The notes beneath the pieces were generated by a model. The model saw nothing but the letters and a program-made list of their open reading frames with translations, did not search any database and had not been told where the DNA came from. 64,000 nt of DNA from Minisyncoccia bacterium (lineage in GTDB: Bacteria > Patescibacteriota > Minisyncoccia > Phycocordibacterales > UBA2100): contig JBAQUX010000024.1 in assembly GCA_049297775.1 (NCBI GenBank), forward strand, positions 9,162 to 73,161, given 5' to 3'. Made by a program: the position numbers and the translations under genes. Positions 363-52,626 of this stretch are shown here, in pieces; within the stretch, counting starts at the first letter, position 1, and each line of letters opens with the position of its first letter.

Positions 363-689
363 ATGTTGCCTTCGCAGAATAGACTGCGCGCACATGACGT
401 AGCTTCACTTGGGAAGAAGGGTGCTTTTCTTAGAAATAAATATTTTACAGCTCGGTACATATCTGCGGCACGAATAGGTGTCGCAGTTGTTGTAAGTAAA
501 AAGGTATATAAAAAAGCAGTTGATAGAAACGCTCTACGCCGGAAGGTCTATACTGCATGCATTCCTCTGCTTCCTTCCCTGCCAGCCATACATATTGTTA
601 TATATCCCCATATAACAGTGAGTACACTCACCGTTATAGAAGTCACACAGTCGCTCAAGGAGCTACTCGTATCCGGGAAAGTGGCGTAG
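363..689 (+). CDS. rnpA: ribonuclease P protein component
   Basis: 108 aa basic protein, MLPSQNRL...start typical of RnpA; rpmH-rnpA-yidC synteny. Confidence 0.85.
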   Translation: MLPSQNRLRAHDVASLGKKGAFLRNKYFTARYISAARIGVAVVVSKKVYKKAVDRNALRRKVYTACIPLLPSLPAIHIVIYPHITVSTLTVIEVTQSLKELLVSGKVA

Positions 690-741: not shown

Positions 742-1458
742 ATGTACGCACTCTTCAACACAATAATTTACACACCACTCTATAATGGCCTTGTCGCACT
801 TTTGTCTTTTGTGCCAAATGGTGATGTAGGTATTGCACTTATTATTTTAACCATTGCCGTTAAATTAGCACTCTCACCACTCGCACAAAAGGGTTCACGT
901 ACTCAGAGGGTTATGAAAGAAATCCAGCCTCAAGTTGATGCAATCAGAAAAAATGAGACCGACCCACGCAAGCAAATGGCTGAATTACAGGCGCTGTATA
1001 AGAAGCACGAAGTAAATCCATTCTCAATGTTCTTGCTTATATTAATTCAGATACCTGTATTAATTGGTTTGTACGTTGTTTTTTCACATGGAGGGCTTCC
1101 CGCAATAGACTCTGCGTACTTGTACTCTTTTGTGCCTGTCCCCCCTACAGTGAGCATGATGTTTCTTGGATTTTTAGACATGACCGTGCGAAGTATCCCC
1201 CTCGCACTTGCTGTTGGTATCTCTCAATATTTTTATGCAGGAGTAATGCCAAACACAGAACCAACCGGCGAGAAAGGTTCGTTCTCACACGATTTCGGCA
1301 AAAGTATGCAAATGCAGATCAAATACGTATTCCCTTTTATAATAGGATTTGTGGCTTTCAGTATTTCCTCAGGAGTAGCATTGTACCTTTTGGTCAGTAA
1401 CCTATTCTCTATTATGCAAGAGTTGTACTTCAAGAATCTTCGCAGTAAAATAAAATAA
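742..1458 (+). CDS. yidC: membrane protein insertase YidC/Oxa1 (short form)
   Basis: 238 aa polytopic membrane protein downstream of rnpA; YidC-like amphipathic and TM segments. Confidence 0.85.
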   Translation: MYALFNTIIYTPLYNGLVALLSFVPNGDVGIALIILTIAVKLALSPLAQKGSRTQRVMKEIQPQVDAIRKNETDPRKQMAELQALYKKHEVNPFSMFLLILIQIPVLIGLYVVFSHGGLPAIDSAYLYSFVPVPPTVSMMFLGFLDMTVRSIPLALAVGISQYFYAGVMPNTEPTGEKGSFSHDFGKSMQMQIKYVFPFIIGFVAFSISSGVALYLLVSNLFSIMQELYFKNLRSKIK

Positions 1459-1460
1459 CT

Positions 1461-1907
1461 ATGGATACCGCACAGCGTACACTCCTTGAACTTATTGCTA
1501 CATTAGGAATTGCCCCAGTGGAACTTTCGGTGACAAATAGTGGCGAACAACACACACTTCAGCTCACCATAGAAAATGGTGGGTTATTGATTGGTGTGGA
1601 CGGTGAGCGTATGAAGGCGCTTGATATGCTGGTACGCATGATTGCAGAAAAGAAAGGTTGCACAGAAAAATTTCATATAGATGTAAACGGGTATCATAAG
1701 GAGCAAGTAATAAAAATTGAACAGACAGCAAAAATGCTTGCAGATAGAGCCCGTTCACTGAAATATGATGTTGAGATGTCTCCCATGAAGCCATACGAGC
1801 GCATGCTTGTGCATGCAGCGCTCACCAATGAGCCAGGCATAAAAACAGAATCTATTGGTTTAGGTAAAGAACGAAGAGTTGTAATAAAGTATATTCCTGA
1901 AGTATAG
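1461..1907 (+). CDS. jag: Jag/KhpB-like R3H-domain RNA-binding protein
   Basis: 148 aa; C-terminal R3H-like region (MLVHAALTNEPGIKTESIGLGKERRVVIK); conserved position after yidC. Confidence 0.8.
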   Translation: MDTAQRTLLELIATLGIAPVELSVTNSGEQHTLQLTIENGGLLIGVDGERMKALDMLVRMIAEKKGCTEKFHIDVNGYHKEQVIKIEQTAKMLADRARSLKYDVEMSPMKPYERMLVHAALTNEPGIKTESIGLGKERRVVIKYIPEV

Positions 1908-1917
1908 GAAAGTCATA

Positions 1918-1942
1918 ATAAAAGCCCTTCGGGGCTTTTATT
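1918..1942. terminator. bidirectional rho-independent terminator (aagccc-ttcg-gggctt flanked by A-run and T-run)
   Basis: Perfect 6 bp GC stem, with an A-tract upstream and a T-tract downstream; sits between convergent jag and the 136 aa gene. Confidence 0.6.
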
Positions 1943-2348
1943 GTTGGAGAGGGGTTGCGTTCGGGTTTGCCTGAATGGGCACCGGTTCTACCGAGAGCTT
2001 TAACATGTCTGGGTTTATTTGTTGGAAAATGATGTATGTAGAAAGCAGCATGAGAAGTCCAAGAACAGCGTTAGTCATGCGTCCTTTCGATTCGCCCATC
2101 TGTACGGCGCCAGATTCTGACATCATATAGACAAGTCCACCATAGACGAACTGACTCACTGCGACCACGCCACCGATTGAGATAGACATTTTAAAAATTG
2201 CATTCAAGAATGGTCCGATAGAGTCGTACTCTTCATAAATGTTCTGGCCATTAATAATGAGAGAGTCTCCAAGAAGTCCTTTAAATCCACCACCGGCCGC
2301 TTGGGCAAGTTGTGTTGTTGCATCAATGAGTGTATGTAGCTGTTCCAT
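1938..2348 (-). CDS. small membrane protein, possible VirB2/TrbC-like pilin (last gene of the T4SS-like cluster)
   Basis: 136 aa with two hydrophobic segments and a Gly-rich N-region; position at the end of the VirB4/VirB6 cluster; family assignment is inference. Confidence 0.5.
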   Translation of the reverse strand: MEQLHTLIDATTQLAQAAGGGFKGLLGDSLIINGQNIYEEYDSIGPFLNAIFKMSISIGGVVAVSQFVYGGLVYMMSESGAVQMGESKGRMTNAVLGLLMLLSTYIIFQQINPDMLKLSVEPVPIQANPNATPLQQ

Positions 2349-2351
2349 ATA

Positions 2352-3686
2352 TTATGCTTCATCAGCAAAGGTGAGCATCCACAGTGTACCGCTAGTCTTA
2401 TCAATAAAGAAGACCCTTTTCCCATCAAGTGAGGTGACCAGATGTGTTGCGTCGAGTCCGTTATCTGCAACGTTGGTCGTATTTATTATTTCCGTGACTG
2501 AGCCCGTCACTGTTTCGATAACACTGAATGTATCACTTAATGTTACTTCGCCTCGATACCATACATCAGGCATACCACTCGGCAATACTTTTGGGAATCC
2601 GCACACCAACTGTGTAGCCACAAGGTACACACATTTTTCTGGTATCGTCGGAGTTGATACGGTCCGTTCTGTGGAATCAGTAAAGTTTCTTATGCGTACT
2701 GTCTGCGCACTCGTGTCACTATTAGAGCCGATAATTGCACTGTTTGAAAATGATGAGTACATAAGTGTCAGCGCCCTAGTATCACCTATCAGTTTTTTTG
2801 TCACTCCAGTCTTAGTATCTATGCTATACGCGTATCCAGGAATTTTCGCTGATGCGTTTTGGGTTATCACGAGTATATTTTTTTGAGGCCAGTGTAATTG
2901 CCAGCCACTCAGCGGGTTCTTCCAAACTCGTTTTGGTTTACTTCCAGTGAAGTCGGATATGACAATTTGCGTTGTACCATCCTCAGTCGCAGTTGCATAC
3001 GCGATAGCGTCTCCCGAGACCGCAATATTTTTTATGTTTATAGGCAAATAACTTCCTATGCCAGTTTCAGCAAGAGATGCCGTCGTGTCTGCCGGCTGTT
3101 CTTTAAGTTCAGAGATTGGCGAACCGAGCGTTAGAATTGAGTCGTCTTCATCAAGGTAACGTAAAATTACCTGAGTGCCATCTGTGTTGAAATAGCTCTC
3201 GAATACTCCTGCTACAGTCGTATTTGTAACACGTGCTGATTTTTTTGTTGCGATGTCTATGTCGATAATGTTTCCTCTGGTGCGTTCAGTAAGGCGTACA
3301 GTTCCTGCCGTTCCGTCGTTTAATACAGTAAATCCAGCTACGGGAGCATCGTAAATCCTTTCAAGCATTGGTTTGGTATTCTTTTTTTCAGGTTCCGTTT
3401 TTGGTGTTGTGACAGGTGTATCTGTAGGTTTTTCAACTGGAGTTAGACCGGGCGTATCTCCATCTTTAGGAAGGGGTAACACCTCTTCGTTCGCTGATGA
3501 GCTCTTATCATTACTAAATGCCCCGCCGCTCCCGCCTGACGAGCCATCAAGTACCAATGGGTCAAATGTTTTGGTTTTTCTACTCTCCGCGTCTGTTTTT
3601 GTGAGGTATGCGTAAAATAATGCGAGACCGGTTGCGCCAACCAAGATGAGTAATGCAATAGTTATGTAGAGTGAGTTTTTGTTCAT
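2352..3686 (-). CDS. membrane-anchored secreted protein (N-terminal TM, Gly/Ser linker, Pro/Thr-rich spacer, beta-rich C-domain)
   Basis: 444 aa; N-terminal hydrophobic helix, SSGGSGGA linker, TP-rich tract; 4 bp overlap with upstream gene suggests operon. Confidence 0.6.
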   Translation of the reverse strand: MNKNSLYITIALLILVGATGLALFYAYLTKTDAESRKTKTFDPLVLDGSSGGSGGAFSNDKSSSANEEVLPLPKDGDTPGLTPVEKPTDTPVTTPKTEPEKKNTKPMLERIYDAPVAGFTVLNDGTAGTVRLTERTRGNIIDIDIATKKSARVTNTTVAGVFESYFNTDGTQVILRYLDEDDSILTLGSPISELKEQPADTTASLAETGIGSYLPINIKNIAVSGDAIAYATATEDGTTQIVISDFTGSKPKRVWKNPLSGWQLHWPQKNILVITQNASAKIPGYAYSIDTKTGVTKKLIGDTRALTLMYSSFSNSAIIGSNSDTSAQTVRIRNFTDSTERTVSTPTIPEKCVYLVATQLVCGFPKVLPSGMPDVWYRGEVTLSDTFSVIETVTGSVTEIINTTNVADNGLDATHLVTSLDGKRVFFIDKTSGTLWMLTFADEA

Positions 3687-4732
3687 ATGCCAAATAGCGA
3701 GCGCCCTTCTGAAATACCGACAGATTCTTGTGTGCTCCCCTCTTGTAGAATCTTATTTTTATTACTGATAGTCACACCTACTTTCGGGTTTCCGTTCGCG
3801 CCCGAAAGTACCGCTCGACCGCCCGCCCCGGGGACAATAGTCGCACCAAAGGCATTCCAAGTGTACTTTGTTGCTGATTCTGAGATACTACTTATGTCCA
3901 TGAAGTAAGGTAAGGCGCGTAGCGTGGTCTCCCGATCAATAATTTTTGCGTTCTTTACTGTAGTGTTAGTCCACAATCCAAGAAGTGCCTTTTGTTCATA
4001 AATGCCAACAGTCACCGGTGATGGTGTGATACGTACTCCAGCGCCGCCGATATATTCACCCTGGAGTGTTTTTACTTGCACATTGAGAAGTGTGGAATCT
4101 CCAAAAAGTGAAGTGTCGAGCGTGAGAGATGACTTACCAAAGCCAGATGAGCGCGGCAAATTTTTCCCATCCTGCGTCCAAGTATATACATAATCCGCGG
4201 GAGTTTTTTTGTCTTCAGCATGAGGTAGTGCTGTAACGCGTACTTTTCCTCCATCTGAATACAACGTGCGTCCTTTATACCCCGGAGGTACATATGAAAT
4301 ACCTTCCCAAAGTATATCTACATCAGATGCACGCACTATCTCCGTAATTTTTACACTGTATCCAGTTTGGTCTGTAACTGTGGCAGTTATTTCATGCTTG
4401 CGTACATCTTTTAGTGTAAATGATGTTGTGTCTACACCGATGCCCCTGTTTAAAACTGTGGTATCGAGTGTCCAGACGATAAGTGAGCTTTGTAAATCAA
4501 GTGCACTCGTGCGTAACGTTGCACTTATTTTTTCACCAACTCCCGCATATGTAGGGCTCATGCCAATGGATGCATCACTTACTACTGTTTCTGCAAACGA
4601 AAATTGCGTCATACACAATAGGACAGCAAAAAGATACATCAGGTGCCTCACTCTGTACACTGCTTGCTTACAACCGAAAAACATACCTATATTGTAGCAG
4701 GTGAAATGTGGTTGTGAGTAGGATTTCCTCAT
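3683..4732 (-). CDS. secreted beta-rich protein of unknown function
   Basis: 349 aa with N-terminal hydrophobic signal-like segment; lies in the cluster immediately downstream of VirB4. Confidence 0.6.
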   Translation of the reverse strand: MRKSYSQPHFTCYNIGMFFGCKQAVYRVRHLMYLFAVLLCMTQFSFAETVVSDASIGMSPTYAGVGEKISATLRTSALDLQSSLIVWTLDTTVLNRGIGVDTTSFTLKDVRKHEITATVTDQTGYSVKITEIVRASDVDILWEGISYVPPGYKGRTLYSDGGKVRVTALPHAEDKKTPADYVYTWTQDGKNLPRSSGFGKSSLTLDTSLFGDSTLLNVQVKTLQGEYIGGAGVRITPSPVTVGIYEQKALLGLWTNTTVKNAKIIDRETTLRALPYFMDISSISESATKYTWNAFGATIVPGAGGRAVLSGANGNPKVGVTISNKNKILQEGSTQESVGISEGRSLFGI

Positions 4733-4761
4733 CTAAATCAAGGTGTGAAATCGTTGGTACC

Positions 4762-6603
4762 TTAAATTTTCGACGATTCAGCGTCGGCTGACTCCGCGGA
4801 GCTTAAGTCTTGCTTGGCCTTTCGTATTGCCAAAATTTGTGATGGGTCAGAGGTAATAATCTGGTCTTCTGTGTATGAAGCAATTACTTTGATGGCAACG
4901 TGCTTAAGTCCAGCAAAGAATATGCCCTCACCAACATCTGATTCAAGTAGCAGATACTTTTCTTCATCTGAGAGCTTAAATGTCTCCTGCACCAGGTCAA
5001 CAGATGTTGGAGACTGTCGAAGTAAAATTTGAATCGATGAGTTAGTGAGCATGGCTTTGCCATATGGGGACTGCAAAAAGTCGCCTACGTCCTGTGTGAT
5101 AGTTGCTAAACCGAGATAATATTTACGTCCACGTTTTGCAATTCCGTACAAGAATGAAGCCGTGTCCTCAGATTTCATCATCCACCAGGCCTCATCGATA
5201 ATGAGCATGCGTTTGCGCAAGTCTTTGCGAACCATGTTCCAGATATGATGCGTGACTATATACATAGCAACCGGCTTCAGTTCGTCCTCCATATCACGCA
5301 CAGAAAAAACGGTGAGGCGTTTATTCATGTCTACGTTTGTCGGTTTGTTTATGAAGCCAGACCACGTACCGTGAGTGTACTTCGAAAGACGTTGGGTCAG
5401 TGACTCACTACCTTCCATGCCCGACAAGACAAGTTCAAAGTCTGAGAGGAGCGGTGGTTCAATGTTAGTAAAATCAGAATCTGCACTAATATCTTTAAGG
5501 GCATATGTTTCTGAAATTGCTTTATCAATCACTGCATCTTCTTCTGGGTTAAGGCCACCGAGCATAATACGGAATAGTCCGACAAGTGTAATGATGTTTC
5601 CTCTTAAAATATCTGCTGGGTTTTCGTCATCACGTGGTACTGGCAAATCGAATGGGTTGATATGGTGCTCTGATGAGAGTGTAATATTGAAATAGCGTCC
5701 ACCGGTTGTTTCTGCCAAGTATTCATATTCACGTTCAGGGTCGATTACGATTACGTCCGCGTCGAACATGAGTGAGCGAAGAATCTCGAGCTTGGTAAAA
5801 TATGATTTACCTGAACCAGACTTTGCAAAAAGTACAGAGTTGTAGTTTTCTAGAGAGAAGCGGTCGAAGAGTACGAGACTTGAGTTGTGACGGTTAATAC
5901 CGTAAAGAATTCCTCGGTCACTGGTGAGGTCGAAAGATACAAACGGAAACGTGCTTGAGAGTGGTTCAGAGTTAAGTTTTGAGTGTACGGCTATTTGATC
6001 ATCTGCTATGGGCATGACACTTTTAAAACCTTGCTCTTGTTGGAAGAGTGTCGGCTTAATATAGACTAGGCGGGCTTCGAGAATTGAACGTATCTCAGTC
6101 TCTGTTTTATCTAATTCATCAGTAGTTTCACCGTAAATGGTGATATACAGCCCTACTTCAAAGAGTTTTTCTTGAGCTTGCTGAAGTCTGTCACGGAGGT
6201 ATTCAAGGTCAGAATATGCGGTGTCGAGCTGTGGATCGCGCACCAAGCCCTTTTCTTCACGAATTTGGATTTGACTCTCTACTTCCGCAACGCGTCTTTG
6301 GAATTGTCTGAGAACCGTTGTTGTATCAATTGGGTGAATATGAATCGCGGCGTCAAACATCTTGTCCAAGTTGATAATTGGCGCGAACCAACCCGTCGTA
6401 AGAAAGCGTGGGTACGAAATAACGAAAAACGTACGAGCAATCTTGTCACCAATGTTCAGCTGCCGAGGTGTTATTTCAAGAGCAGAAGGTGCAAGTACGT
6501 CTTGTAGTTCCAGAACGCCGCGTGCGTAAATTTCTTGCGGAAGCACAGGCACCGCAGGGCGCTCATCAGTTTTTTGTTTTGAAAAAATATCGAATACTCC
6601 CAT
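4762..6603 (-). CDS. type IV secretion/conjugation ATPase, VirB4/TrbE/CagE family (ATPase domain)
   Basis: 613 aa; Walker A AKSGSGKS, Walker B-like IVIDEAWW, overall VirB4 C-terminal architecture. Confidence 0.85.
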   Translation of the reverse strand: MGVFDIFSKQKTDERPAVPVLPQEIYARGVLELQDVLAPSALEITPRQLNIGDKIARTFFVISYPRFLTTGWFAPIINLDKMFDAAIHIHPIDTTTVLRQFQRRVAEVESQIQIREEKGLVRDPQLDTAYSDLEYLRDRLQQAQEKLFEVGLYITIYGETTDELDKTETEIRSILEARLVYIKPTLFQQEQGFKSVMPIADDQIAVHSKLNSEPLSSTFPFVSFDLTSDRGILYGINRHNSSLVLFDRFSLENYNSVLFAKSGSGKSYFTKLEILRSLMFDADVIVIDPEREYEYLAETTGGRYFNITLSSEHHINPFDLPVPRDDENPADILRGNIITLVGLFRIMLGGLNPEEDAVIDKAISETYALKDISADSDFTNIEPPLLSDFELVLSGMEGSESLTQRLSKYTHGTWSGFINKPTNVDMNKRLTVFSVRDMEDELKPVAMYIVTHHIWNMVRKDLRKRMLIIDEAWWMMKSEDTASFLYGIAKRGRKYYLGLATITQDVGDFLQSPYGKAMLTNSSIQILLRQSPTSVDLVQETFKLSDEEKYLLLESDVGEGIFFAGLKHVAIKVIASYTEDQIITSDPSQILAIRKAKQDLSSAESADAESSKI

Positions 6604-6612
6604 AAATATCTA

Positions 6613-7278
6613 TTATTGTGAACCAGATTTAATTGGGTTGTCTTGCTCTCCAGGGTTGAAAATTCTGTAGAGTAATTCAATCGCTTCCTCTGTGCCTAAT
6701 TGTACTGTACGTACACCTGTTCGGACGAGGCCTTGCTGAACAATTCCCACACGTTGCTCAAGCTGAGAAAGACTTTCTTCAAAAGCTGTTTTTGAGCCAC
6801 TTACTTGTTCACTTGCGCGGCCTTTTTTCGCCCATGGCATGGGGAGGTTTGCGAGCGGTGAGTTTTCGAGGACTGCACCTGCAGGAAGGTACGGCACTAC
6901 TACAAAGAAGTGCTTGGTCATGATGTTAGCGGCCTCTGTAAAGCTCTTAATGAAGTTAATGTATTCCCGAATCTGAATCTTCATAAGTTCATCAAGTGTA
7001 TTTTTAAGTGCGTCTTCAAGTGAAGAAATATAGGGACGAATATCGAGTTTGCGGGATTGGATGAATATCTGTACGTGGAAATCTAATGAGTTGAGAAAGT
7101 TTTGGTATTGCATCAAGAATGCACTCTGCTCATCGTCAGATTTTAGGGCAAAGTTAAGTGATGAAGCCATAAGAATAGCCTTCATACTGCCATCATTTAA
7201 TATAATGACACCGTCACGGACCTCTTTCACTGGTACGAATTCTTGTGCGGGCGTTGCTGATTTAATATCTATTGCCAT
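6613..7278 (-). CDS. VirB4 N-terminal-domain-like protein (split from the ATPase ORF)
   Basis: 221 aa; VKEVRDGVIILNDGSMKAILMASSLNFALKSDDEQ pattern typical of VirB4/TraC N-termini; same frame as the downstream ATPase ORF, separated only by TAA TAG plus 6 nt. Confidence 0.55.
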   Translation of the reverse strand: MAIDIKSATPAQEFVPVKEVRDGVIILNDGSMKAILMASSLNFALKSDDEQSAFLMQYQNFLNSLDFHVQIFIQSRKLDIRPYISSLEDALKNTLDELMKIQIREYINFIKSFTEAANIMTKHFFVVVPYLPAGAVLENSPLANLPMPWAKKGRASEQVSGSKTAFEESLSQLEQRVGIVQQGLVRTGVRTVQLGTEEAIELLYRIFNPGEQDNPIKSGSQ

Positions 7279-7279
7279 A

Positions 7280-7726
7280 TTATCGTTGTTGCTTTTTTAT
7301 ACCCTTCCCTGCCTCGTCTACATATTCATTGATGTCCAAGCTCCAGGAAATTTGTCTGAGTTTACTATCTGAAAGTGAAGGAAGCTCATTCGCATTTTTA
7401 ATTTCGCGGCCATCATTTTGTTGCTCAGTGGTGACTTTTGGTGCGCGATGCTTCCACAAAAATAGTTTACCACGGATAGAATAATAGAATGCATGTTCGA
7501 GCACACTGAGAAACGGTTGGTCATTCACACGATAAAATGCGAGTGCCAAAGAAAATCCTGCAACCGGGAGCACTCCAATAAGTGCAATCGACTTCGGAAG
7601 TAACGCAAAAACAAAATATGAAAGTCCTGCTCCGCCACCCAAGAAAATGAACTGCTTGAACGTAAACGGACCAAATATCTTATCTTCTACGTCAGTAAAT
7701 TGTGGGACAGCAAACTGCATACGCAA
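7280..7726 (-). CDS. two-TM small membrane protein, VirB3/PrgI-like
   Basis: 148 aa with two adjacent hydrophobic helices, located directly upstream of the VirB4 ORFs as VirB3-type proteins are. Confidence 0.5.
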   Translation of the reverse strand: MRMQFAVPQFTDVEDKIFGPFTFKQFIFLGGGAGLSYFVFALLPKSIALIGVLPVAGFSLALAFYRVNDQPFLSVLEHAFYYSIRGKLFLWKHRAPKVTTEQQNDGREIKNANELPSLSDSKLRQISWSLDINEYVDEAGKGIKKQQR

Positions 7727-7769
7727 AGTATAGCAGGCGTATGCATGTCAATTATATTTCTATGCACAA

Positions 7770-8339
7770 CTATACGGGGAGTTCGCGGTACATGTCCTCT
7801 TTTACTGTGTGGCGCTCAGCAGTGGAATCTCCGGCGTTGTTACTTGTAGGTGCCGTGCCTGTCGTATCGACTTTTTTCTCAGCACGCTCCTGAATGATTT
7901 GGAATACTGTTTTCGAGTTTTGTACTTCAGCGCGAGCACCTGTAGGCAGTGACTCACCCATTTCTGCGAGCATTTTCTGTTGATCAACTGGAACAGTTAC
8001 AGTTCTTTCCGCGGCCCTGCTCGTTGCAACTTCTTGGAGTTGTAATCGTATTGGCTCAAAAATTATTTCAACTGCGTCGTTGTTTATGGCAATTGCCTCT
8101 TCCATCGAGATACCGAGCTCTTTTTGGATGCTCCCTACTAAGTTTTCCGGCGGCGTGATACCAAAAAGAGCAAAGGTTATTTCGTCTTCAAGTATTGACC
8201 ACTTATCTAGATGGAGCTTGTGTTTTTCTGCGAGTTTACGCATTTTTCCCGTGAGATCGGATGAGTTGATGGCGTCCTGTACAATCTTTGGTAGCGCATT
8301 AAATGCATCTTTATATATTTCTTCTGTGGTTTGTTCCAT
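7770..8339 (-). CDS. hypothetical soluble protein in the T4SS-like cluster
   Basis: 189 aa ORF, protein-like composition, same orientation and tight spacing. Confidence 0.55.
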   Translation of the reverse strand: MEQTTEEIYKDAFNALPKIVQDAINSSDLTGKMRKLAEKHKLHLDKWSILEDEITFALFGITPPENLVGSIQKELGISMEEAIAINNDAVEIIFEPIRLQLQEVATSRAAERTVTVPVDQQKMLAEMGESLPTGARAEVQNSKTVFQIIQERAEKKVDTTGTAPTSNNAGDSTAERHTVKEDMYRELPV

Positions 8340-8350
8340 AAGATTTTAAA

Positions 8351-10678
8351 TTAATGATGGTCGTCTCCACCTCCGGCTGGGGCTGCAGGAGCTCCACCGC
8401 CAGATGGGGCTGCTGGAGCCGCAGGCGGCGCGAAGCTCGATTGTATTCTTGCTGCCTGTTCTGCGTCTCGTTGCGATTGTCGTTTTGACCTCAGTGCATT
8501 TTTTACTGTATCCTCATTTACTCCAAATTGCTTGCTCTGCTGCGCCTTCATTGCTGATGCGTATGCATTAAACGAAGGCATTTCCGCGTCTATCTTTTTT
8601 GCTGTAGCAGTAAAGTCGCGCATACGTTCTTGGTTTGCTGCGTAGCCTTTCTTGAGTGCTAAATAGTCGCTCGTTTTTCCTGCGTCGCCTGTCGTTGCAA
8701 CGAATTTATTCAATTCATCATTAGATAGTTCAGCATTAAACGCTGTCGATGCATCTTTAAGGCGAGAAGTAATTTTTCGGATACTTTCATCGTACTCTGA
8801 AAGCTTAATTTGCTCAGCTCTTGCACCTGTTCCACCCGCAGCAAGTTTTGTTTGATTATCGTCTGCAAACTTTTTACGCTCTGCCTGTGCCGTGTTAAGT
8901 GCGCTTTGTGCTTCGTCATAATTTTTCTTTTCGCCTGGACGTACCTGACCCTTAATTTCTGAGGCGAGGTTATCAAATGATTTTTTAAGTTCAGCTCCTT
9001 GCGCGCCTTCTTGTTGGGCGGTGCCAAACTTTTTCGCATCGAGAAGCTTTGCTTTCTCTGCTTCGTACTGTTCTTTAAGCTTCGCTTCTCTATCTGCCCC
9101 AGTTCCAACAACCTTATCCATAATTGCCTTACGTGCCAATTGTTCGAGCTTATCTTCGTCCTCATGATGTTTTGAATCTTCCTTCTTTCGTTTTAGATAA
9201 CCTTTCTCTGCTTCTTTTGGTGTAGTTGCCTTGTTGAGTTTTTGCATTCCATCATTAATACCCTTGAGAGCCTTGCTCAGTTTTCCATCAGCACCTAAGG
9301 TTCCAGCAGACTGCCTCCCCTTTGCCGCCATTAGTTTTTTAATATCATTTTCTGATGAATGCAGGCCCATTCCTGCCTCGAGTCCGGCAACTCGCCGAGC
9401 ATTTATTGCATCAATAAAACCACCTCTTGCATTTTGTCCCAGTGTTCGCGCGCCAGCAACCATGCGTCCACTTGCATTAAGCTTATTAAGCCATCCACCG
9501 ATACCAAATAGTAAGCTGTCACTTTTTGCTGAAAGTGAACTCGCGAGTTTTATCGCACCAAAGAGGAGCCCGCAAATAACAAAGTAGTTGATAAGTACAG
9601 CTCCGGCGCCAGGATCGGTGAGGTCGGTCATAGCCTTCGAAAGTGTCATTGAACGATTTACATTTCCCACGAGTGCATCAGAGATTGCAGTTATCGCCCA
9701 GAGCATCATCATCAGTAGCGGTGCGAATATTGCTTGCTGGAAAAGAGCAGAGAGCCACTGCTCTTGGTATGTTTTAAATTTTGGTATCAGAAATGCGACA
9801 GTCGCAAGTGAGGAAACAGCCATTAAAATTATAAGCATTACAATGCGGTAAATGAGCTGGAAAACGCCATAGAACAAAATTACGGTTGCGAGTAGCGTAA
9901 ACGCAAAAAGTCCCATAATAGTAACAAGTACTCCAACAAAATTTGAGCCGACGTTATCCCAGATTTGCTTAGTGCCCGAGCCTGTTGTTGAGCCTGCAAG
10001 ACCACCCGTCGCACCCACAGAAGTCATGAGTCTACTTGCGATACCAATGCCGGTTTTTTTCTCCGTGCCGTTCGCTTGGAGTTGTACCTGGAGCGACGAT
10101 GTACCTTTGAAAAACTGATACGCAACAAAGTTCGATACGTCAATAACCGCTTTCGTGAAGAAGAGACTAAAGTTTATAAGGACCGCAACTACGCATATTT
10201 TTATCGCGAACTGTTTAATGTTGTACGTGTGGTTTCCTAAGATAGTTGCAAAACCGACAAAAACAAACATACCAATAATGATTATGTTTGAGAGATCGCG
10301 AAACACGCTCCACACCATATTTATGGATGTCATAACGTTTCCGTTTAGCGTATCTCCAAAGTTTGTTATTGAATAGTTAATTGCCTGGTCAAAAAGTAGA
10401 CCCGCCATTGAAAGGAAGAAAGTACTAATTCCATTTATTAACGTACCGAGTATGGCGGCGATGCCCCCAAAGAAATAGCTTGAACCAGTACCAAGTGCCG
10501 ATCCTGCGACTGAAGAAAATGCCCAAGAAATCCACCCTGGATCATTACTTGGTGTCGCTTGCGCCGATTGTGCGAGTGCAGTAAGTGTGTGTAGTCCATC
10601 ATGCACACTGAAGACGAGTGGTGACGCAGAAAGAATGAGTGCAACAAAAAAAATCGAGAAATATCTGAATTTCTGCAT
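8351..10678 (-). CDS. polytopic membrane protein with long C-terminal coiled-coil/low-complexity tail, VirB6/TrbL-like
   Basis: Signal-like start MQKFRYFSIFFVALILSA at 10678 (track ORF extends to 10729); multiple TM helices followed by a K/E/A/Q-rich tail ending in a PAAPAAPSGGGAPAAPAGGGDDHH motif. Confidence 0.6.
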   Translation of the reverse strand: MQKFRYFSIFFVALILSASPLVFSVHDGLHTLTALAQSAQATPSNDPGWISWAFSSVAGSALGTGSSYFFGGIAAILGTLINGISTFFLSMAGLLFDQAINYSITNFGDTLNGNVMTSINMVWSVFRDLSNIIIIGMFVFVGFATILGNHTYNIKQFAIKICVVAVLINFSLFFTKAVIDVSNFVAYQFFKGTSSLQVQLQANGTEKKTGIGIASRLMTSVGATGGLAGSTTGSGTKQIWDNVGSNFVGVLVTIMGLFAFTLLATVILFYGVFQLIYRIVMLIILMAVSSLATVAFLIPKFKTYQEQWLSALFQQAIFAPLLMMMLWAITAISDALVGNVNRSMTLSKAMTDLTDPGAGAVLINYFVICGLLFGAIKLASSLSAKSDSLLFGIGGWLNKLNASGRMVAGARTLGQNARGGFIDAINARRVAGLEAGMGLHSSENDIKKLMAAKGRQSAGTLGADGKLSKALKGINDGMQKLNKATTPKEAEKGYLKRKKEDSKHHEDEDKLEQLARKAIMDKVVGTGADREAKLKEQYEAEKAKLLDAKKFGTAQQEGAQGAELKKSFDNLASEIKGQVRPGEKKNYDEAQSALNTAQAERKKFADDNQTKLAAGGTGARAEQIKLSEYDESIRKITSRLKDASTAFNAELSNDELNKFVATTGDAGKTSDYLALKKGYAANQERMRDFTATAKKIDAEMPSFNAYASAMKAQQSKQFGVNEDTVKNALRSKRQSQRDAEQAARIQSSFAPPAAPAAPSGGGAPAAPAGGGDDHH

Positions 10679-10738
10679 TGAGAATAGTATACCGTATTCT
10701 ACAGTACTCTGCGTATGCGTAGTGCACACAAAACGGGT

Positions 10739-12511
10739 TTAGTTATTTACCTGAAAGTCCGTCCACTTCTCCTCTTTACACCATGACTTTTCCCAGTCAG
10801 ATTTTGTCTTGTCGTAAAGTAAGTTAAGGGCGTCATTCACTTGTGAACGCTGATCTGTTGCATTAGAGACATCTCCACTGCCGTGCAGTGCCTTCCCTGC
10901 AACCATTTGGTCTAACTGTTCAAGAACAAAACGTGTAATTGAAGGATTCTTGTTGTCTGCGAGCATTTGGTTTAATTTTTGGAGTGCAGTCAACGCTTTT
11001 TGGCCGTTAGTAATTGATGTGGTGATTGCAGAAAGTAGAGGACGTACTTCTGAGTTTATTATTGCCAATGATTTATCTCGTGTAATGAGTAACTTTACCG
11101 TTTCTCTCTCAGTACCTGAACGCGCAACGATAAGGTGATATTTTTTCGGATTTGATTCACTTGAACCAGGGGCATCTGATTCGGTGTCAGTGACTGATGC
11201 GCCACAATTGCCATAGTTTTGACCGTCTCCACCACATACTCTGTCTTCAAGTTTCTTTTTAGTATCTTCTTTCGCTTTGTCTATGAGTTTTGTGTAACAC
11301 ACATCTTCCAGGCGAAGCAATTTGGTAACAAAATCTTCAAGAAGTTTCTTCGTTGCCGTGCGAACGCCCACATACTGGGTCTCAAGATCGAGTGCTTTTT
11401 TAAGTGCATCCACTCCTACGGTCGTTGTTTCTCCTGTTGCTCGCCCGAATGAATCTTGGACGGTCTTATCTAGATATGAGGGCTGCCCATTTCGACTCTC
11501 TGTTGAGCCCTTAAAACCAGTGAAGCTTGAAAGTACTTGGTTCTGAAAGTTTGAAATAAAACCACCCAGTAGTTCGTCAATTTGGTCAGCATTTTCTGTT
11601 TGTCTAAATCCTGTCTGTGATACATAACTCGCCATGTCAGAAATAACTTTTCCAGGAGTTACAATGTTACATTGCTCCTCATATTTGCCATTTCCTGAAG
11701 GAACTTGTGTACATTCTTTTTGCGATCTAAATCCATTCCCCCACTCAAGTTCACGCAAATCATTTTCTTGGGTTGTTTGTATCGCTCTGTTGAGTGTTTC
11801 ATTTGCGTAGGTGTATGCGCTCAGTGGGTCATTACCAGACTGAAGTAATGAAAGATATGCGGCAAAACCTCCGCCTTCATCTAGGTTTCCATCAAGGAGT
11901 TTCTGTAATTGGTCTGGCGTCCCTGGAAATTTACATGCATAGGTAGATGTTTGCTTACGGGTGCGATTTTGGTAGTTTCGTAGAACGGCTTGTTTTACTG
12001 AATCTCGGTATGGCGCACAAATGTTGTTCAGTGATTCGTCTTCAAGAAACTTCTGAGCGACTTCATCTGAGCGTTCCCGCATTTCTTGAGGGACGTTTTG
12101 TGAATACTGCGTTCTACCATCTGGACCCTTGTTAATGCCACTTACTGCAGCTCGTAGGAGGCCAGAAACCAAGGCTTCACGCTGTCGCACGTTAAGTCCA
12201 TCAAGAACACAAAATTTATTGACTAATATAAATGTATTAAGTGCAACCGCTTCTTCTGAGACCGGAACAAATGTTCCAGCTGCATGGCGCTGTCCGACTG
12301 GCCCTACCTGCCCAATGCCTTGACACCCGTAGATACCATCTCGAGCAAAGCCGGTGAAGTCGAAGGAGGCGTTTTGATTGGTCGTACCATTAGCATTTTG
12401 CGTCCCATCTATAGCTTTCAAAATATCGTCCAAGCTTTTTGTTTGCGCATGCGCACCATGCGCAGGGAGTGCGCAGATTATTACAATTAATATTATTGCG
12501 AGTAATTTCAT
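10739..12511 (-). CDS. large secreted protein of unknown function
   Basis: 590 aa, clear signal peptide MKLLAIILIVIICALPAHGAHA, Cys-containing extracellular-type composition. Confidence 0.6.
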   Translation of the reverse strand: MKLLAIILIVIICALPAHGAHAQTKSLDDILKAIDGTQNANGTTNQNASFDFTGFARDGIYGCQGIGQVGPVGQRHAAGTFVPVSEEAVALNTFILVNKFCVLDGLNVRQREALVSGLLRAAVSGINKGPDGRTQYSQNVPQEMRERSDEVAQKFLEDESLNNICAPYRDSVKQAVLRNYQNRTRKQTSTYACKFPGTPDQLQKLLDGNLDEGGGFAAYLSLLQSGNDPLSAYTYANETLNRAIQTTQENDLRELEWGNGFRSQKECTQVPSGNGKYEEQCNIVTPGKVISDMASYVSQTGFRQTENADQIDELLGGFISNFQNQVLSSFTGFKGSTESRNGQPSYLDKTVQDSFGRATGETTTVGVDALKKALDLETQYVGVRTATKKLLEDFVTKLLRLEDVCYTKLIDKAKEDTKKKLEDRVCGGDGQNYGNCGASVTDTESDAPGSSESNPKKYHLIVARSGTERETVKLLITRDKSLAIINSEVRPLLSAITTSITNGQKALTALQKLNQMLADNKNPSITRFVLEQLDQMVAGKALHGSGDVSNATDQRSQVNDALNLLYDKTKSDWEKSWCKEEKWTDFQVNN

Positions 12512-13413
12512 AGATTTTCAACTTTTTTTATGAGGAAATATGTTTGAAATGATTGAAACGCGAGTTCTACTTCTTGCTCGGCTTTTCCAAAGTGACCAAC
12601 AGCAGCATAGCTTCCTGCAACGTCGTCAAATCCTTTTGACATGCCGTTGAGGCTCGCACTTAAGTAAGAAAGTGCATTTGCTAGCGTAATATGCTGTGCG
12701 AGCACGTCATCAGGGACTTCAACCGTGAGTAGTTTTTCCGCTACCCCTGCGTATAGTTTCGCATATTCTCCAAGTTTTCCAAATTCAGCTGGGTCATTTT
12801 TATCAACGGCACGCGCATATGTTTGAAGTTCATATTCTGGGATTGTAGACATGGCTTCGATGGCCTTTTTCGTATCATCACGATAACGGGTGACTCGTTC
12901 TGTGCTCGTGTCACGAGTACTTTTCTTTATTGAATCAAGTGTGTACTTTGTGTATACAAGTTTTTTTGTTCTATCTAGTGCGTTACCTATGATTTTATCA
13001 TTATCTTTCGGTTGGTATACTCCAAGCTCCGTTCGGTTGATAAAAGTACCAATAAGGTCTCCTGCAAGCATTTCAGTTTTTGTTGTTGGTTGGACGTCTG
13101 CCGGCGCTTCGGTGGTTTCAGCATTTTTGCTCTTTTTTTCTGCGATTTCATCTTTATCACTTACTCCATCATCATCAGTATCTTTCTTGGTGCTATCAGT
13201 CCCGTATAACTGTTCTTCCCAGTCTTCAACCCCGTCACTATCGGTATCGCGGATATCCGATACTGGCAATTGTTTTTCCTGACGTCCATCTGTAGTAGTC
13301 GTAGCTGTACGTGTTTGCGTAACAATCGCGCTCGTTACTATAACCGCAACACCAATTATCAGTGTGCTGAGTACTTGGGGTGAAGTGGAGATGGGAATCC
13401 TAGGAAAAATCAC
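12508..13413 (-). CDS. membrane-anchored protein with thrombospondin-type-3-like Asp-rich calcium-binding repeats
   Basis: 301 aa; N-terminal TM; DTDSDGVEDWEE...DTDDDGVSDKDE motifs. Confidence 0.6.
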   Translation of the reverse strand: MIFPRIPISTSPQVLSTLIIGVAVIVTSAIVTQTRTATTTTDGRQEKQLPVSDIRDTDSDGVEDWEEQLYGTDSTKKDTDDDGVSDKDEIAEKKSKNAETTEAPADVQPTTKTEMLAGDLIGTFINRTELGVYQPKDNDKIIGNALDRTKKLVYTKYTLDSIKKSTRDTSTERVTRYRDDTKKAIEAMSTIPEYELQTYARAVDKNDPAEFGKLGEYAKLYAGVAEKLLTVEVPDDVLAQHITLANALSYLSASLNGMSKGFDDVAGSYAAVGHFGKAEQEVELAFQSFQTYFLIKKVENL

Positions 13414-13480
13414 CCTTATAGTATACGTTACAAATATAGAATACCGCGCATGTGCGTACGCCTCCTGTGCATTAATCTTA

Positions 13481-14335
13481 CTAAAAGCCAGTAACTGCCG
13501 GAGAAAATATCCCCCCCGGCTCGTCTGGTGAAAATTTTACCCCATAGGCACCAAAAAGTTGTGCAAGTGCGATAAAACTTTCGCCAAAAGTCTCAACTGA
13601 TCCGTTGTATATCAGAATCTGAGCATAGATTGCTTCGTCCGTGTTTTTGCCGGAAAATGCGAGAAGTTGATTCCCTACGCCAGTGTATCCAAGACTGAGT
13701 CTATGGGCGCTTTCGGAAAATCCATGTGGTGCCAGCGTGTCATCAATGTTTTTTGCGAGCTGTATGTAGTTGTCACCAATATTTTTTATATCAGAATATG
13801 ATTCTGTATTTTTGTTTTTTACAAATACACCAAGCGCTTCATTTTGGTCGCCATTTTTTATTACCATGTCGTGAATCTTTTGTCCGATGGTATTCCCGTA
13901 CTCATGAATTACTTTCTTGAGCTGATCTTCTTCCGAAAGCACATCTTTCGTGGCGTTGGTGTTTGTATGAGTAATAACTCCTAGGCCGTCGAGGGTGATA
14001 AGTTCCGGGTCTGATGAAATTTTTTGTGAGGGCTTATTTGTTGGTGCATCCTCGCTCACTACTTCTTTATTTTTCGGCTCTGCTACTGTAAATATACCTC
14101 GGCGTATCGTAGAGCCCCATTCACTGAAGGAATCTTTTTTTGATAACGTTGCTTCGTCAGCACGGGCGGTACGTGGAGTATATGTATCATATTGTGTAGG
14201 TGTGCCGATAGTGCCTCCATCAACAAACGTCAAATCTCGAGTATTTTTTCCTGGTGCAATAAATACAACGTATGCTGTAGTCAGTGCCCCCATAAGCACC
14301 AGTGCTACTCCTATCATTCCGAACTTTGTTGCCAT
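13481..14335 (-). CDS. membrane-anchored secreted protein (first gene of the T4SS-like cluster)
   Basis: ORF is open to 14386 but MATKFGMIGVALVLMGALTTAYVVF at 14335 gives a short N-term followed by a TM anchor; 14386 start would abut a divergent ATG. Confidence 0.5.
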   Translation of the reverse strand: MATKFGMIGVALVLMGALTTAYVVFIAPGKNTRDLTFVDGGTIGTPTQYDTYTPRTARADEATLSKKDSFSEWGSTIRRGIFTVAEPKNKEVVSEDAPTNKPSQKISSDPELITLDGLGVITHTNTNATKDVLSEEDQLKKVIHEYGNTIGQKIHDMVIKNGDQNEALGVFVKNKNTESYSDIKNIGDNYIQLAKNIDDTLAPHGFSESAHRLSLGYTGVGNQLLAFSGKNTDEAIYAQILIYNGSVETFGESFIALAQLFGAYGVKFSPDEPGGIFSPAVTGF

Positions 14336-14387
14336 GGTGGACAGTATACCGTGACAATTTTGGTATGGGTGTAATACTGTACACATT

Positions 14388-14741
14388 ATGAAAAAACTCT
14401 TTCACAAGAAAAGCATTGTGACGTTGCTCCTTGTGTTTTCGGTAAGTGTCTCTCTATGGTCCATACCACAACGCTCTGAAGCTATTGTGTATTTTGGTGG
14501 GTCAATTGGAAGAATAATCTTTTGCATCAACAACGTTACCTACGCAAATCTCGGTGCACCTCGTGGCGGTCCATATTTATGGTCACCTAAGGTAACTAAG
14601 ACATATCAGTTTGGTCCTCCGCGACATTCAGGACAGTGGCTTCTTGGAGCGGCCGGACCTTCATATTTTTGTATCGAGTCAGTATTGCCACTCATTGTGC
14701 ACCCAGGACTCCTCATTTTGTTCATGGGTAGTAGCCAGTAA
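14388..14741 (+). CDS. small secreted Gly/Pro-rich protein (hypothetical)
   Basis: 117 aa, convincing signal peptide MKKLFHKKSIVTLLLVFSVSVSLWSI; start codon lies back-to-back with the 14386 minus ATG, so doubtful. Confidence 0.35.
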   Translation: MKKLFHKKSIVTLLLVFSVSVSLWSIPQRSEAIVYFGGSIGRIIFCINNVTYANLGAPRGGPYLWSPKVTKTYQFGPPRHSGQWLLGAAGPSYFCIESVLPLIVHPGLLILFMGSSQ

Positions 14742-14784: not shown

Positions 14785-15636
14785 TTATCGAGAATTAGTA
14801 GTTGTGGTAAGTGCTTTTACTAACTGTACCCACTGAGTTAGTGGAACGTCTTCAGCGCGCGCAGTACGTGATATACGAACGATATCCAAAGATGCCTGAA
14901 TTGCTTCATCGGTAAACAATGAGCGCAAATTACCAGCGAGCATTTTTCTTCGTGCTTTGAATGCACACTTAACTATCGAAAAAAAATGTTGCTCGTCCAC
15001 AGAATCAAATCTTTGACGTGAAATTGAGCTTATATGAATAATTGCTGAATCTACATTTGGCGGTGGGCTAAATGCGCCTCGTGGCACCGTCTTTATATAT
15101 CTAGGTTCGCCGTACACTTTTACTGACAAAGAAAGAATACTTTCCTTTTTTGAGCGTGCGATTCTTTCAGCGACTTCTTTCTGAACAAGTAGTGTAATAG
15201 ATAGCGGTTGGTGCTTCGCTTCAAAAGCGTCACGAATAATCTCGCCAGTTATGTAATAGGGGATGTTCGCAACAACTTTATATGGTGCACCATGCGCCTG
15301 ACTTTCTGCAGAAAATGTTCGAATGTCACCGTGGATGAGTTCGAAACGTTTTTCCGATATCTCTTGAGTAAAAAGCGTTGTGAGTAGCGGGATAAGATCG
15401 GCATCCTTTTCAATCGCAATCACGTGTGCACCAGTATCAAGTAGTTTTCGTGTAAGCACGCCTGTACCAGGCCCTATTTCGACGACGGTATCCTGCTTCG
15501 TTACTTCTGCCGCCCGTACCATCTCATATAACGCTGAAACTGACGTCAGAAAATGTTGCCCGAGGTGCTTTTTTGCTATGGGTCCTTTTTTTCTACTACG
15601 AGCGTCAGCATTTTTTTTGTGTGGGCGGTGCATCAT
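14785..15636 (-). CDS. rsmA: 16S rRNA (adenine1518/1519-N6)-dimethyltransferase
   Basis: 283 aa; HLGQHFL...VVEIGPGTGVLT SAM-binding motif of KsgA/RsmA. Confidence 0.85.
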   Translation of the reverse strand: MMHRPHKKNADARSRKKGPIAKKHLGQHFLTSVSALYEMVRAAEVTKQDTVVEIGPGTGVLTRKLLDTGAHVIAIEKDADLIPLLTTLFTQEISEKRFELIHGDIRTFSAESQAHGAPYKVVANIPYYITGEIIRDAFEAKHQPLSITLLVQKEVAERIARSKKESILSLSVKVYGEPRYIKTVPRGAFSPPPNVDSAIIHISSISRQRFDSVDEQHFFSIVKCAFKARRKMLAGNLRSLFTDEAIQASLDIVRISRTARAEDVPLTQWVQLVKALTTTTNSR

Positions 15637-17641: not shown

Positions 17642-17734
17642 GTGGGACACAATACCACAGCACACGTCTCTTCTTACGCAGTGTGCATATAATTCAATAT
17701 TTGAAAAGTATCTCATATATGAGATACTTCAAGT

Positions 17735-37089: not shown

Positions 37090-37091
37090 CT

Positions 37092-42676: not shown

Positions 42677-43123
42677 CTATTGCATAGGTGATGCAGGAGG
42701 CATCTCTATATACTTGATTTCCATAGCTGCGAGAATAACAAGTGCCGCATAAAAAATAAGTCCATACGCGCACGTCGGGAGCCCGAGAGTATACGTTGCT
42801 CCAGAGATGAACGCGTACACCTCAGGAATAGTGAAATACCCAGCAAAGAGCACCCCGAGTAAGCCCAAAGTAATGCATATTTTTGTCGCAGTACCCGTAG
42901 ATAAAACTTTTTTCAGTGTCAAAACCGAAGTGACGAAGAGCACGGAAAATAATGCGAATCCATACCAGCAGGCTGGATATCCAAGAAAGTACGGACATGG
43001 TTCATTGAGCGGACAGGTGCCGGTAATAAACCGAGAAAAGGTAATGTACCCAGAGAAACAGACACCCATGCTCGTAATTGCCGTTATGTACAATGAGAAA
43101 TTTTTCATATAGTAAGTATACAT
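42677..43123 (-). CDS. hypothetical polytopic membrane protein
   Basis: ORF is open to 43168 but that would overlap the hup terminator; internal ATG at 43123 chosen. Confidence 0.45.
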   Translation of the reverse strand: MYTYYMKNFSLYITAITSMGVCFSGYITFSRFITGTCPLNEPCPYFLGYPACWYGFALFSVLFVTSVLTLKKVLSTGTATKICITLGLLGVLFAGYFTIPEVYAFISGATYTLGLPTCAYGLIFYAALVILAAMEIKYIEMPPASPMQ

Positions 43124-43156
43124 CCGTAATTTAAAGTTTACAGGTGGGCGGTGCAC

Positions 43157-43184
43157 AAAAAATGCCACCGATAGGTGGCATTTC
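43157..43184 (-). terminator. rho-independent terminator downstream of hup (atgccacc-gata-ggtggcat with T-run on the minus strand)
   Basis: 8 bp stem; A-run on the plus side equals a T-run after the stem on the minus strand. Confidence 0.5.
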
Positions 43185-52586: not shown

Positions 52587-52626
52587 GGCAATCTGTGCAT
52601 ATCTTTCGGACCTCTGCTGATATACT

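Follow-up and report, generated by a model that had tools for sequence, protein, structure and literature searches.

Introduction

Type IV secretion systems (T4SSs) are widespread in the Patescibacteria, in which the ATPase VirB4 is encoded by 2,417 of 3,035 genomes and nearly all of the VirB4 proteins fall into a single clade within MPF_FATA (Quinonero-Coronel et al. 2025, PMC12102498); members of this Patescibacteria clade are found in 2,407 of the 3,035 genomes (PMC12102498). Genes for TrsD, PrgI/VirB3, VirB6 and VirB2-like pilins are located close to virB4, relaxases are encoded in only 103 of the 3,035 genomes, and homologues of the type IV coupling protein (T4CP) are rarely near virB4 (PMC12102498). 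In Paceibacteria, the T4SS locus lies close to dnaA, dnaN, rnpA, rpmH and ksgA (PMC12102498). A cluster of this kind is described here in a stretch of 64,000 nucleotides (contig JBAQUX010000024.1, positions 9,162 to 73,161; referred to below, at its full length, as the window) from a metagenome-assembled genome (MAG) of a Minisyncoccia bacterium. Eleven genes on its minus strand, designated g01 to g11, very probably encode the chromosomal, relaxase-free T4SS of the Patescibacteria (the candidate phyla radiation, CPR), located beside the replication-origin gene block of a genome of the Minisyncoccia (corresponding to Paceibacteria/Parcubacteria).

Transposon sequencing has shown that Southlakia cannot grow as an epibiont without its T4SS, the pilins included (Wang et al. 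2023, PMC10633639). Both the delivery of effectors and the uptake of molecules have been raised as roles of the Patescibacteria T4SS, the function of which is called unknown (2025 review, PMC12857230; PNAS perspective, PMC11665869). The class Minisyncoccia belongs to the phylum Minisyncoccota, for which the former names are CPR or Patescibacteria (PMC12592800).

Organization of the cluster and its core components

A listing of open reading frames (ORFs) reproduced the eleven minus-strand ORFs of the cluster, with the lengths and coordinates given in Table 1. Because the gaps between them range only from -4 to 67 bp, the eleven ORFs look like one operon. Pattern scans of the region for promoters and terminators did not reveal sites in excess of those in shuffled sequence (18 where 23.8 were expected, and 13 where 12.3 were) and were thus uninformative, so that the operon structure is drawn from the spacing of the genes. 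On metagenome contigs carrying identical proteins, later starts are called for g03, g08 and g11 (Table 1), and the NCBI names of the identical proteins, which come from a Minisyncoccia MAG, are "DUF87 domain-containing protein" or "hypothetical protein".

The g04 protein matches the NCBIfam model NF045971, "VirB4-like conjugal transfer ATPase, CD1110 family", with an E-value of 4e-108 and 362.6 bits, above the cutoff of 325. Its NCBIfam scores decrease from the CD1110 family through VirB4 of Mycoplasma integrative and conjugative elements (ICEs) and TraC-F to VirB4_CagE, and its Pfam matches are P-loop_TraG (7.8e-26), AAA_10 and DUF87. The Walker A motif (AKSGSGKS, at about residue 260) and the Walker B motif (MLIIDE, at 466) are both intact. 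The alignment covers positions 185-733 of the 752 positions of NF045971, and because the match begins at position 185, g04 lacks the canonical N-terminal domain of VirB4. The adjoining ORF g05, which is located 9 bp upstream of virB4, aligns to the N-termini of VirB4 profiles (NF045975 positions 104-233, E 9.3e-11; CD1110 positions 2-114), shows a weak match to TrsD (E 5.8e-5), and has a precomputed Pfam assignment to PF26593, TraC-like. These alignments indicate that g05 supplies the domain that is absent from the g04 VirB4. When synteny was counted in 85 related loci by tblastn of all window proteins, g05 was found to be kept in 83 of them, mostly at 209-231 amino acids (aa); because of this retention at a similar length, the split between g04 and g05 must be ancient and is not a sequencing frameshift.

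The g06 protein scores 44 bits against PF12666 (PrgI), for which the Pfam gathering threshold (GA) is 27, possesses two transmembrane (TM) segments (26-44 and 46-64), and is found in 79 of the 85 loci. The g01 protein contains two hydrophobic helices and lacks a classical signal peptide. Of nine orthologues, eight match PF18895 (T4SS_pilin), four of them above GA, and one also matches TrbC/VirB2 weakly; g01 is syntenic in 59 of the 85 loci. In many distant relatives (loci L022, L027, L030-L032 and others), a pilin-like match is situated between g03 and g02 and not after g02. The first-start ORFs around those matches are 134-580 aa long and may be over-extended upstream, which suggests that the pilin gene of the distant relatives is rearranged or N-terminally extended.

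The g08 protein consists of about seven TM segments followed by a hydrophilic, A/K/E-rich C-terminal tail of about 350 aa, the profile of which matches generic helical proteins. The window protein itself has no match in the Pfam scan, and 4 of 40 orthologues match PF04610 (TrbL/VirB6), with a best E-value of 7.7e-5. An AlphaFold2 (AF2) model of residues 18-440 was obtained with a predicted local distance difference test score (pLDDT) of 69 and a predicted template-modelling score (pTM) of 0.63, and when this model was compared by Foldseek with 350,542 PDB chains, ranks 1-5 were occupied by the TrwI/VirB6 chains of the R388 stalk complex. Alignment of the g08 profile with the single TrwI sequence by hhalign covered the expected region with a probability of only 12%, and was not used as evidence on its own. 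The structural comparison thus identifies g08, with moderate confidence, as a protein of the predicted VirB6 fold.

The first-pass annotation of the window, which had been made from the sequence alone, had proposed eleven tightly packed minus-strand ORFs with a VirB4 ATPase, a separate ORF for the VirB4 N-domain, a two-TM protein of the PrgI/VirB3 type and a small pilin-like protein, and each of these was recovered by the searches described above. It had also proposed a VirB6/TrbL-like protein with a long coiled-coil tail, of which the VirB6 likeness and the long tail stand and the coiled coil was not confirmed.

Table 1. Coordinates of the T4SS cluster and of other features of the window.
Feature	Position	Strand	Length and description
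g01	1938..2348	-	136 aa; VirB2-like T4SS pilin; PF18895 just under GA, supported by orthologues
g02	2352..3686	-	444 aa; N-terminal TM anchor, Pro/Thr-rich linker, predicted extracellular TolB-like beta-propeller
g03	3683..4732	-	349 aa (probable start 4684, 333 aa); secreted or anchored; three tandem Ig-like domains of about 100 aa
g04	4762..6603	-	613 aa; VirB4 ATPase without canonical N-terminal domain; NF045971
g05	6613..7278	-	221 aa; predicted stand-alone VirB4 N-terminal domain (TrsD-like)
g06	7280..7726	-	148 aa; PrgI/VirB3-like two-TM protein; PF12666
g07	7770..8339	-	189 aa; apparently cytoplasmic; conserved N-terminal domain, Pro-rich linker, C-terminal DPYRE motif
g08	8351..10729	-	792 aa (probable start 10678, 775 aa); extended VirB6/TrbL-like polytopic membrane protein
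g09	10739..12511	-	590 aa; secreted Cys-rich protein; large family without Pfam model
g10	12508..13413	-	301 aa; bitopic; extracellular DxDxDG calcium-binding (TSP3-like) repeats; C-terminal helical domain; remote paralogue of g11
g11	13481..14386	-	301 aa (probable start 14335, 284 aa); bitopic; C-terminal helical domain as in g10
117-aa ORF	14388..14741	+	small secreted protein, divergent from g11; possible associated gene
rnpA	363..689
yidC	742..1458
jag/KhpB-like	1461..1907
ksgA	14785..15636
uvrD/pcrA	15701..17716
MurA-like protein	17735..19261	+
LysM and M23 peptidase	19448..20506	+
Secreted protein	28069..30603	-	844 aa
Tyrosine recombinase	31168..32085
Two adjacent ORFs	35746..38438	+	447 and 448 aa
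Type IV pilus set	52627..59993

Genes of conjugation and the chromosomal setting

Pfam scans covered the window ORFs of at least 150 aa without obvious overlaps, except the two at 42677-43168 and 52518-53048, and a scan for Walker A motifs took in all reading frames of the window. Neither scan revealed a VirD4/TcpA coupling protein, a VirB11 or a relaxase in the 64 kb. The other ORFs with a Walker A motif are UvrD, ComM, PilB and two chance or spurious cases, and VirB4 is the sole P-loop ORF of T4SS type in the window. The absence of VirD4, VirB11 and a relaxase, which had been proposed for the eleven ORFs, therefore holds across the whole window.

The cluster is embedded in housekeeping genes. 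On its left it is preceded by rnpA, yidC and a jag/KhpB-like gene, and on its right it is followed by ksgA, uvrD/pcrA and then murA (Table 1); the rest of the window encodes ComM, PNPase, the CCA-adding enzyme, RNase Y, ClpP, trigger factor, NusA, GDH, TIM and PGK. Contigs that carry an identical VirB4 extend beyond the left end of the window and encode rnpA, dnaA, dnaN and a PBP gene there, so that a complete ICE just outside the window, which had been considered in the first reading, is not present on that side. Transcription of the T4SS operon, ksgA and uvrD, which lie on the strand opposite to rnpA-yidC-jag, runs in the direction of dnaA and of the presumed origin and is therefore head-on to the replication fork; this arrangement is kept in nearly all related loci in which both flanks are available.

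Relatives of the cluster were searched in a collection with one genome per species, in which at least 556 confirmed VirB4 relatives were present among the 600 matches listed. The best 80 of these at least 556 relatives all belong to Patescibacteria MAGs (Paceibacterota, Kaiserbacteria, Parcubacteria and others), and their VirB4 proteins are 74-92% identical. The gene order uvrD-ksgA-(117-aa ORF)-g11...g01-jag-yidC-rnpA is collinear in almost every locus with enough flanking sequence (about 80 species). Because this block is collinear in so many related species, the cluster can be taken as a chromosomal locus that has been inherited vertically, rather than as an ICE.

The median identities of the core proteins are 76% for VirB4, 59% for TrsD and 46% for PrgI; those of the accessory proteins are 26-36%, and the VirB6-like g08 is retained across related genomes at a median of about 28%. 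The housekeeping neighbours YidC, KsgA and UvrD show medians of 42, 48 and 51%, respectively, although the contrast between VirB4 and its neighbours is biased because the loci were chosen by VirB4 similarity. VirB4 appears, from these identities, to be under unusually strong constraint, and the contrast, though biased, argues against a recent transfer of the cluster.

These data bear directly on the possibility that the cluster is the mating-pore module of an ICE, intact or decayed, whose relaxase, coupling protein and integrase are elsewhere or have been lost. Such an origin would agree with the similarity of g04 to the conjugative VirB4 of the Firmicutes type (CD1110 family) and with the presence in the window of a tyrosine recombinase and of tRNA genes at about 34.5 kb. 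However, the recombinase is the only one in the window and is separated from the cluster by 17 kb with housekeeping genes between them; the GC content is flat across the cluster (0.42-0.45) with no compositional break; and no att-like direct repeats flank it, the repeat search having given only short imperfect chance matches. The eleven genes keep the same order between jag and ksgA, by dnaA, in about 80 species, and the accessory genes have diverged in place to 22-40% identity, which fits long vertical descent. Together with the lack of a relaxase or T4CP in the window and the rarity of relaxases among Patescibacteria genomes (PMC12102498), these observations leave an ICE with only a very slight chance, and an ICE remnant is essentially excluded by the synteny across species.

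Several other genes of the window are worth recording. About 5 kb past the operon, a protein with LysM and M23 peptidase domains is encoded, which matches M23 endopeptidases in the PDB with E-values down to 1e-22. A wall hydrolase regarded as a VirB1 analogue has been noted for Paceibacteria (PMC12102498), and the peptidase of the window may be that hydrolase or simply a housekeeping enzyme. The MurA-like protein has an apparent N-terminal helix-turn-helix of XRE type, as seen by eye in the translation. The 844-aa secreted protein is rich in Gln, Pro and Thr, of low complexity and without family match, and its gene lies in the stretch where the AT skew of the window is strongest (-0.32). Beside tRNA-Pro there are two adjacent ORFs without Pfam match. 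The type IV pilus set comprises PilC, a PilB that carries an MshEN domain, two large pseudopilins with the N-methyl motif (212 and 597 aa), and a 583-aa protein without family match.

Accessory proteins of the cluster

The remaining genes of the operon encode proteins that mostly face the outside of the cell. The g02 protein has a TM segment at residues 6-24. In the PDB, 12 sequences of TolB propellers are matched by the profile of its orthologues, the best with an E-value of 6.7e-4, and the PD40 repeat is matched by 3 of 40 orthologues; g02, syntenic in 68 of the 85 loci, is thus predicted to be a membrane-anchored TolB-like beta-propeller. In g03, which directly follows virB4 in 82 of the 85 loci, hhalign detects internal repeats with probabilities of 97, 96 and 72%, and each repeat contains one conserved Trp (W87, W185 and W292). 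The best PDB match of the g03 profile is Hoc of phage T4, followed by proteins with the immunoglobulin (Ig) fold, and one homologue carries PF06832.

The g10 protein has a TM segment at 8-26 and repeats with a conserved DxDxDG that match TSP3_bac and CglD, and its profile matches the calcium-binding loops of Bap, lanmodulin and calmodulin. The g11 protein has a TM segment at 25-43 and no Pfam or PDB match, and is detected in 18 of the 85 loci, which are those of the closer relatives. Comparison of the two profiles by hhalign gives a probability of 97.9% (E 4e-13) over about 140 aa of the C-terminal domain, which indicates that g10 and g11 are remote paralogues. A component of the VirB8 type (NTF2 fold) was looked for among the bitopic proteins; no sign of it was seen, g02 being a propeller, g03 Ig-like, and g10 and g11 sharing a helical-looking domain.

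The g07 protein differs from the others in having neither a TM segment nor a signal peptide, and is probably cytoplasmic. It contains a conserved N-terminal domain of about 100 aa, judged helical by eye only, and a C-terminal motif, D182-P-Y-R-E186, that is nearly invariant in 37 orthologues (DMYRE in the window version), while the rest of the protein is poorly conserved. Pfam and PDB searches with g07 found nothing; the motif may be a docking or recognition peptide.

Beyond g11 and on the opposite strand, the 117-aa ORF encodes a protein with a signal-peptide-like N-terminus and two Cys, for which no Pfam match was obtained. It is present at the same position in 19 of the 85 loci, on the strand opposite to the operon in all but one, and could be a further secreted component or a substrate of the system.

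The g09 protein belongs to a large family, which comprises 5,289 clusters at E<=1e-3 in a representative library of 1.84 billion proteins clustered at 50% identity. The protein has a hydrophobic N-terminal segment (3-21), 11 Cys and a conserved VPVxD motif in its N-terminal region, and AF2 models the C-terminal half as a long bundle of helices into which a small beta element is inserted. The mean pLDDT of the model is 65, and most of residues 370-590 reach 84-95, so that the model is confident only in the C-terminal bundle. Neither g09 nor any of 35 orthologues showed a Pfam match over the shared core, two profile searches of the PDB gave no sequence match, and a match to MobP3 (E 0.09) was noise. 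Some orthologues add Ig, fibronectin type III (fn3) or F5/8-type-C domains, with which exposure of g09 at the cell surface would be in keeping.

A relationship of g09 to VirB5 was considered, because the VPVxD motif resembles the mature N-termini of TrwJ of R388 (reference record NC_028464) and TraC of pKM101. The g09 gene stands ahead of the VirB6-like gene, a position that corresponds to that of virB5 relative to virB6, and one orthologue shows, directly after its signal peptide, a sub-threshold match to DUF4141, the Bacteroides TraI family. Bacteroides TraI is related to VirB5 (PMC4027160). However, Foldseek with the g09 model returns flagellins and ClyA-type toxins and no VirB5, hhalign against TraC finds nothing, and when 629 plasmid ORFs were searched with a hidden Markov model of the motif region, neither TrwJ nor TraC was ranked. 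A VirB5-like role of g09 is therefore of low probability.

Six proteins of the operon had been described at first as secreted or membrane-anchored and as belonging to no recognisable family. A signal peptide or TM segment is present in five of them, the exception being g07; and although most remain without a family, g02 can be assigned to the TolB-like propellers and g03 to the Ig-like repeat proteins. As judged from these profiles and models, the five envelope-exposed proteins would be a propeller, a stalk of three Ig domains, a Cys-rich helical protein and two paralogous calcium-binding or helical bitopic proteins. Accessory genes of this kind have apparently been left without family match in the published analysis (PMC12102498).

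Proposed function

In the chromosomal T4SS that the cluster very probably represents, VirB4 together with the TrsD-like protein would dock on PrgI and VirB6 in the single membrane and would power the assembly of a short pilus or conduit of the VirB2 type. The ectodomains of the accessory proteins would lead it across the wall and keep it pressed to the host cell, and the machine would then move proteins or other (small) molecules between epibiont and host. Such transfer is more likely than conjugation, because the locus contains no relaxase and no coupling protein, and the machine is therefore not regarded as conjugative. If the essential system of Southlakia is taken as a guide, the T4SS may be required for host-dependent growth.

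A more specific possibility, which must be regarded as tentative and rather doubtful, is that g09, g10/g11, g02 and g03 constitute an extracellular module specific to the Minisyncoccia/Paceibacteria that would replace the functions of VirB8, VirB1, VirB5 and adhesins and bridge to the host, with g09 as a VirB5-like cap or stalk on VirB6.

The direction of transport could also be the reverse, the same machine acting as an importer that, in the manner of ComB or Ced, takes up DNA, nucleotides or other host molecules into an auxotrophic epibiont. The locus has no T4CP, VirB11 or relaxase, and the ComB system of Helicobacter pylori is likewise not known to have any of the three. Uptake has been raised in the literature (PMC11665869, PMC12857230), and in Southlakia ComEC-dependent competence is dispensable and the T4SS is essential (PMC12857230, PMC11665869). 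The ATPase domain of g04 also shows weak NCBIfam similarity to CedB (E 1.4e-9) and CedD (3e-3) of the archaeal DNA-import system, but these matches are confined to the shared P-loop region and are far under the family cutoffs. Moreover, none of the operon's products was recognised as a DNA-binding or nuclease component, and transport direction is not readable from sequence. On balance, an importer is unlikely, though it is the most plausible of the alternatives.

A system that no longer translocates anything and serves only to build a VirB2-type pilus, or another adhesive structure on the surface, with which to attach to the host would account for the conserved pilin gene and for the many adhesin-like ectodomains (the propeller and Ig repeats, and the lectin-like, Ig and fn3 additions in g09 orthologues). 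VirB4 indeed drives pilus biogenesis in canonical systems (PMC4027160). However, for attachment and motility the genome already encodes a system of type IV pili (52.6-60 kb), and the VirB6-fold channel protein is kept across related genomes, though strongly diverged. Because of this retained channel protein and the separate pilus system, a pilus that serves adhesion only is less likely, and its probability is considered to be low.

Some observations weigh against the assignment to the relaxase-free T4SS of the Patescibacteria and should be set beside the evidence for it. The pilin of the window scores 26.3 bits against PF18895, just under the GA of 26.6, and the fold match between g08 and TrwI, although top-ranked and of high Foldseek probability (0.98-1.0), is weak in its E-values (8e-3 to 4e-2) and template-modelling scores (0.3-0.44). 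Neither a VirB8-like nor a VirB1-like protein was identified among the products of the operon. A T4CP or relaxase may possibly be encoded farther off in the genome, since the scans cover 64 kb only, and VirD4-like matches are indeed located far from virB4 in many genomes (PMC12102498). Membership of g04 in the Patescibacteria VirB4 clade is judged from its nearest relatives and from the ranking of NCBIfam scores. The function of the system is entirely inferred, none of the Paceibacteria T4SSs having been studied experimentally, and in Saccharibacteria the role of the T4SS is described as "completely unknown" (PMC11665869).

The Patescibacteria T4SS is of interest because it occurs in the majority of the genomes of a very large radiation and because, with Southlakia, a T4SS was for the first time shown to be essential to the organism that carries it. 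The window adds a clean and complete example from an uncultured member of the Minisyncoccia, together with a list of the accessory genes that travel with VirB4. It leaves the published picture unchanged, and its main residual value lies in the annotated accessory set and in the large g09 family without a Pfam model; the component list may be useful in selecting targets for structure prediction or cryo-electron tomography.

Comparison with known T4SSs

The Ptl system of Bordetella and the VirB system of Brucella are diderm systems of the MPF_T type with an outer-membrane core of VirB7/9/10, none of which was recognised in the window, and both also have VirB11. They share with the present cluster the absence of a VirD4-type coupling protein (PMC12102498, PMC12857230). 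Because Ptl and Brucella VirB export proteins in this state, a T4SS can evidently do so without a T4CP.

ComB is likewise a diderm system, with homologues of VirB7-10, and the archaeal Ced system has unrelated membrane components and only sub-threshold similarity of its ATPase to g04. Both resemble the cluster in lacking a relaxase and in having a VirB4-family ATPase at the centre, and they provide the precedent for inward transport (PMC11665869).

Much closer are the MPF_FATA systems of the Firmicutes with a VirB4 of the CD1110 family, among whose prototypes are Tn916 and ICEBs1. Other prototypes are CTn2, pCF10 and pGO1 (PMC12102498). With these systems the cluster has in common the best VirB4 match above the cutoff, PrgI, a VirB6-like channel, a TrsD-like protein (as in pGO1) and a single membrane. 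It differs from them in that the operon has no recognised coupling protein, relaxase, VirB8-like protein (PrgL/TcpC/ConB) or VirB1-like hydrolase, in having a VirB2-like pilin, which is absent from the Gram-positive systems, and in being chromosomally fixed and not carried on a mobile element.

The closest likeness is to the T4SS of the Patescibacteria clade, as represented by SEML1_0006-0019 of Southlakia epibionticum, with which the cluster shares VirB4 and an adjacent TrsD-like protein, PrgI/VirB3, VirB6, a VirB2-like pilin and the monoderm envelope. In Southlakia, a member of the Saccharimonadia, six pilins form an array and peptidase/lysozyme genes lie next to the system, whereas the operon of the Minisyncoccia genome encodes a single pilin and no hydrolase and is distinguished by the accessory genes g02, g03, g07, g09, g10 and g11. 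The features held in common with the clade as a whole include the chromosomal location, the absence of a relaxase and T4CP from the locus and, as in Paceibacteria, the proximity to dnaA, rnpA and ksgA. The minimal T4SS of Gram-positive type from ultra-small episymbionts that had been recognised in the first-pass annotation agrees with the literature (PMC12102498, PMC10633639, PMC12857230). The cluster is less new than that annotation implied, for it matches the published, phylum-wide system feature by feature.

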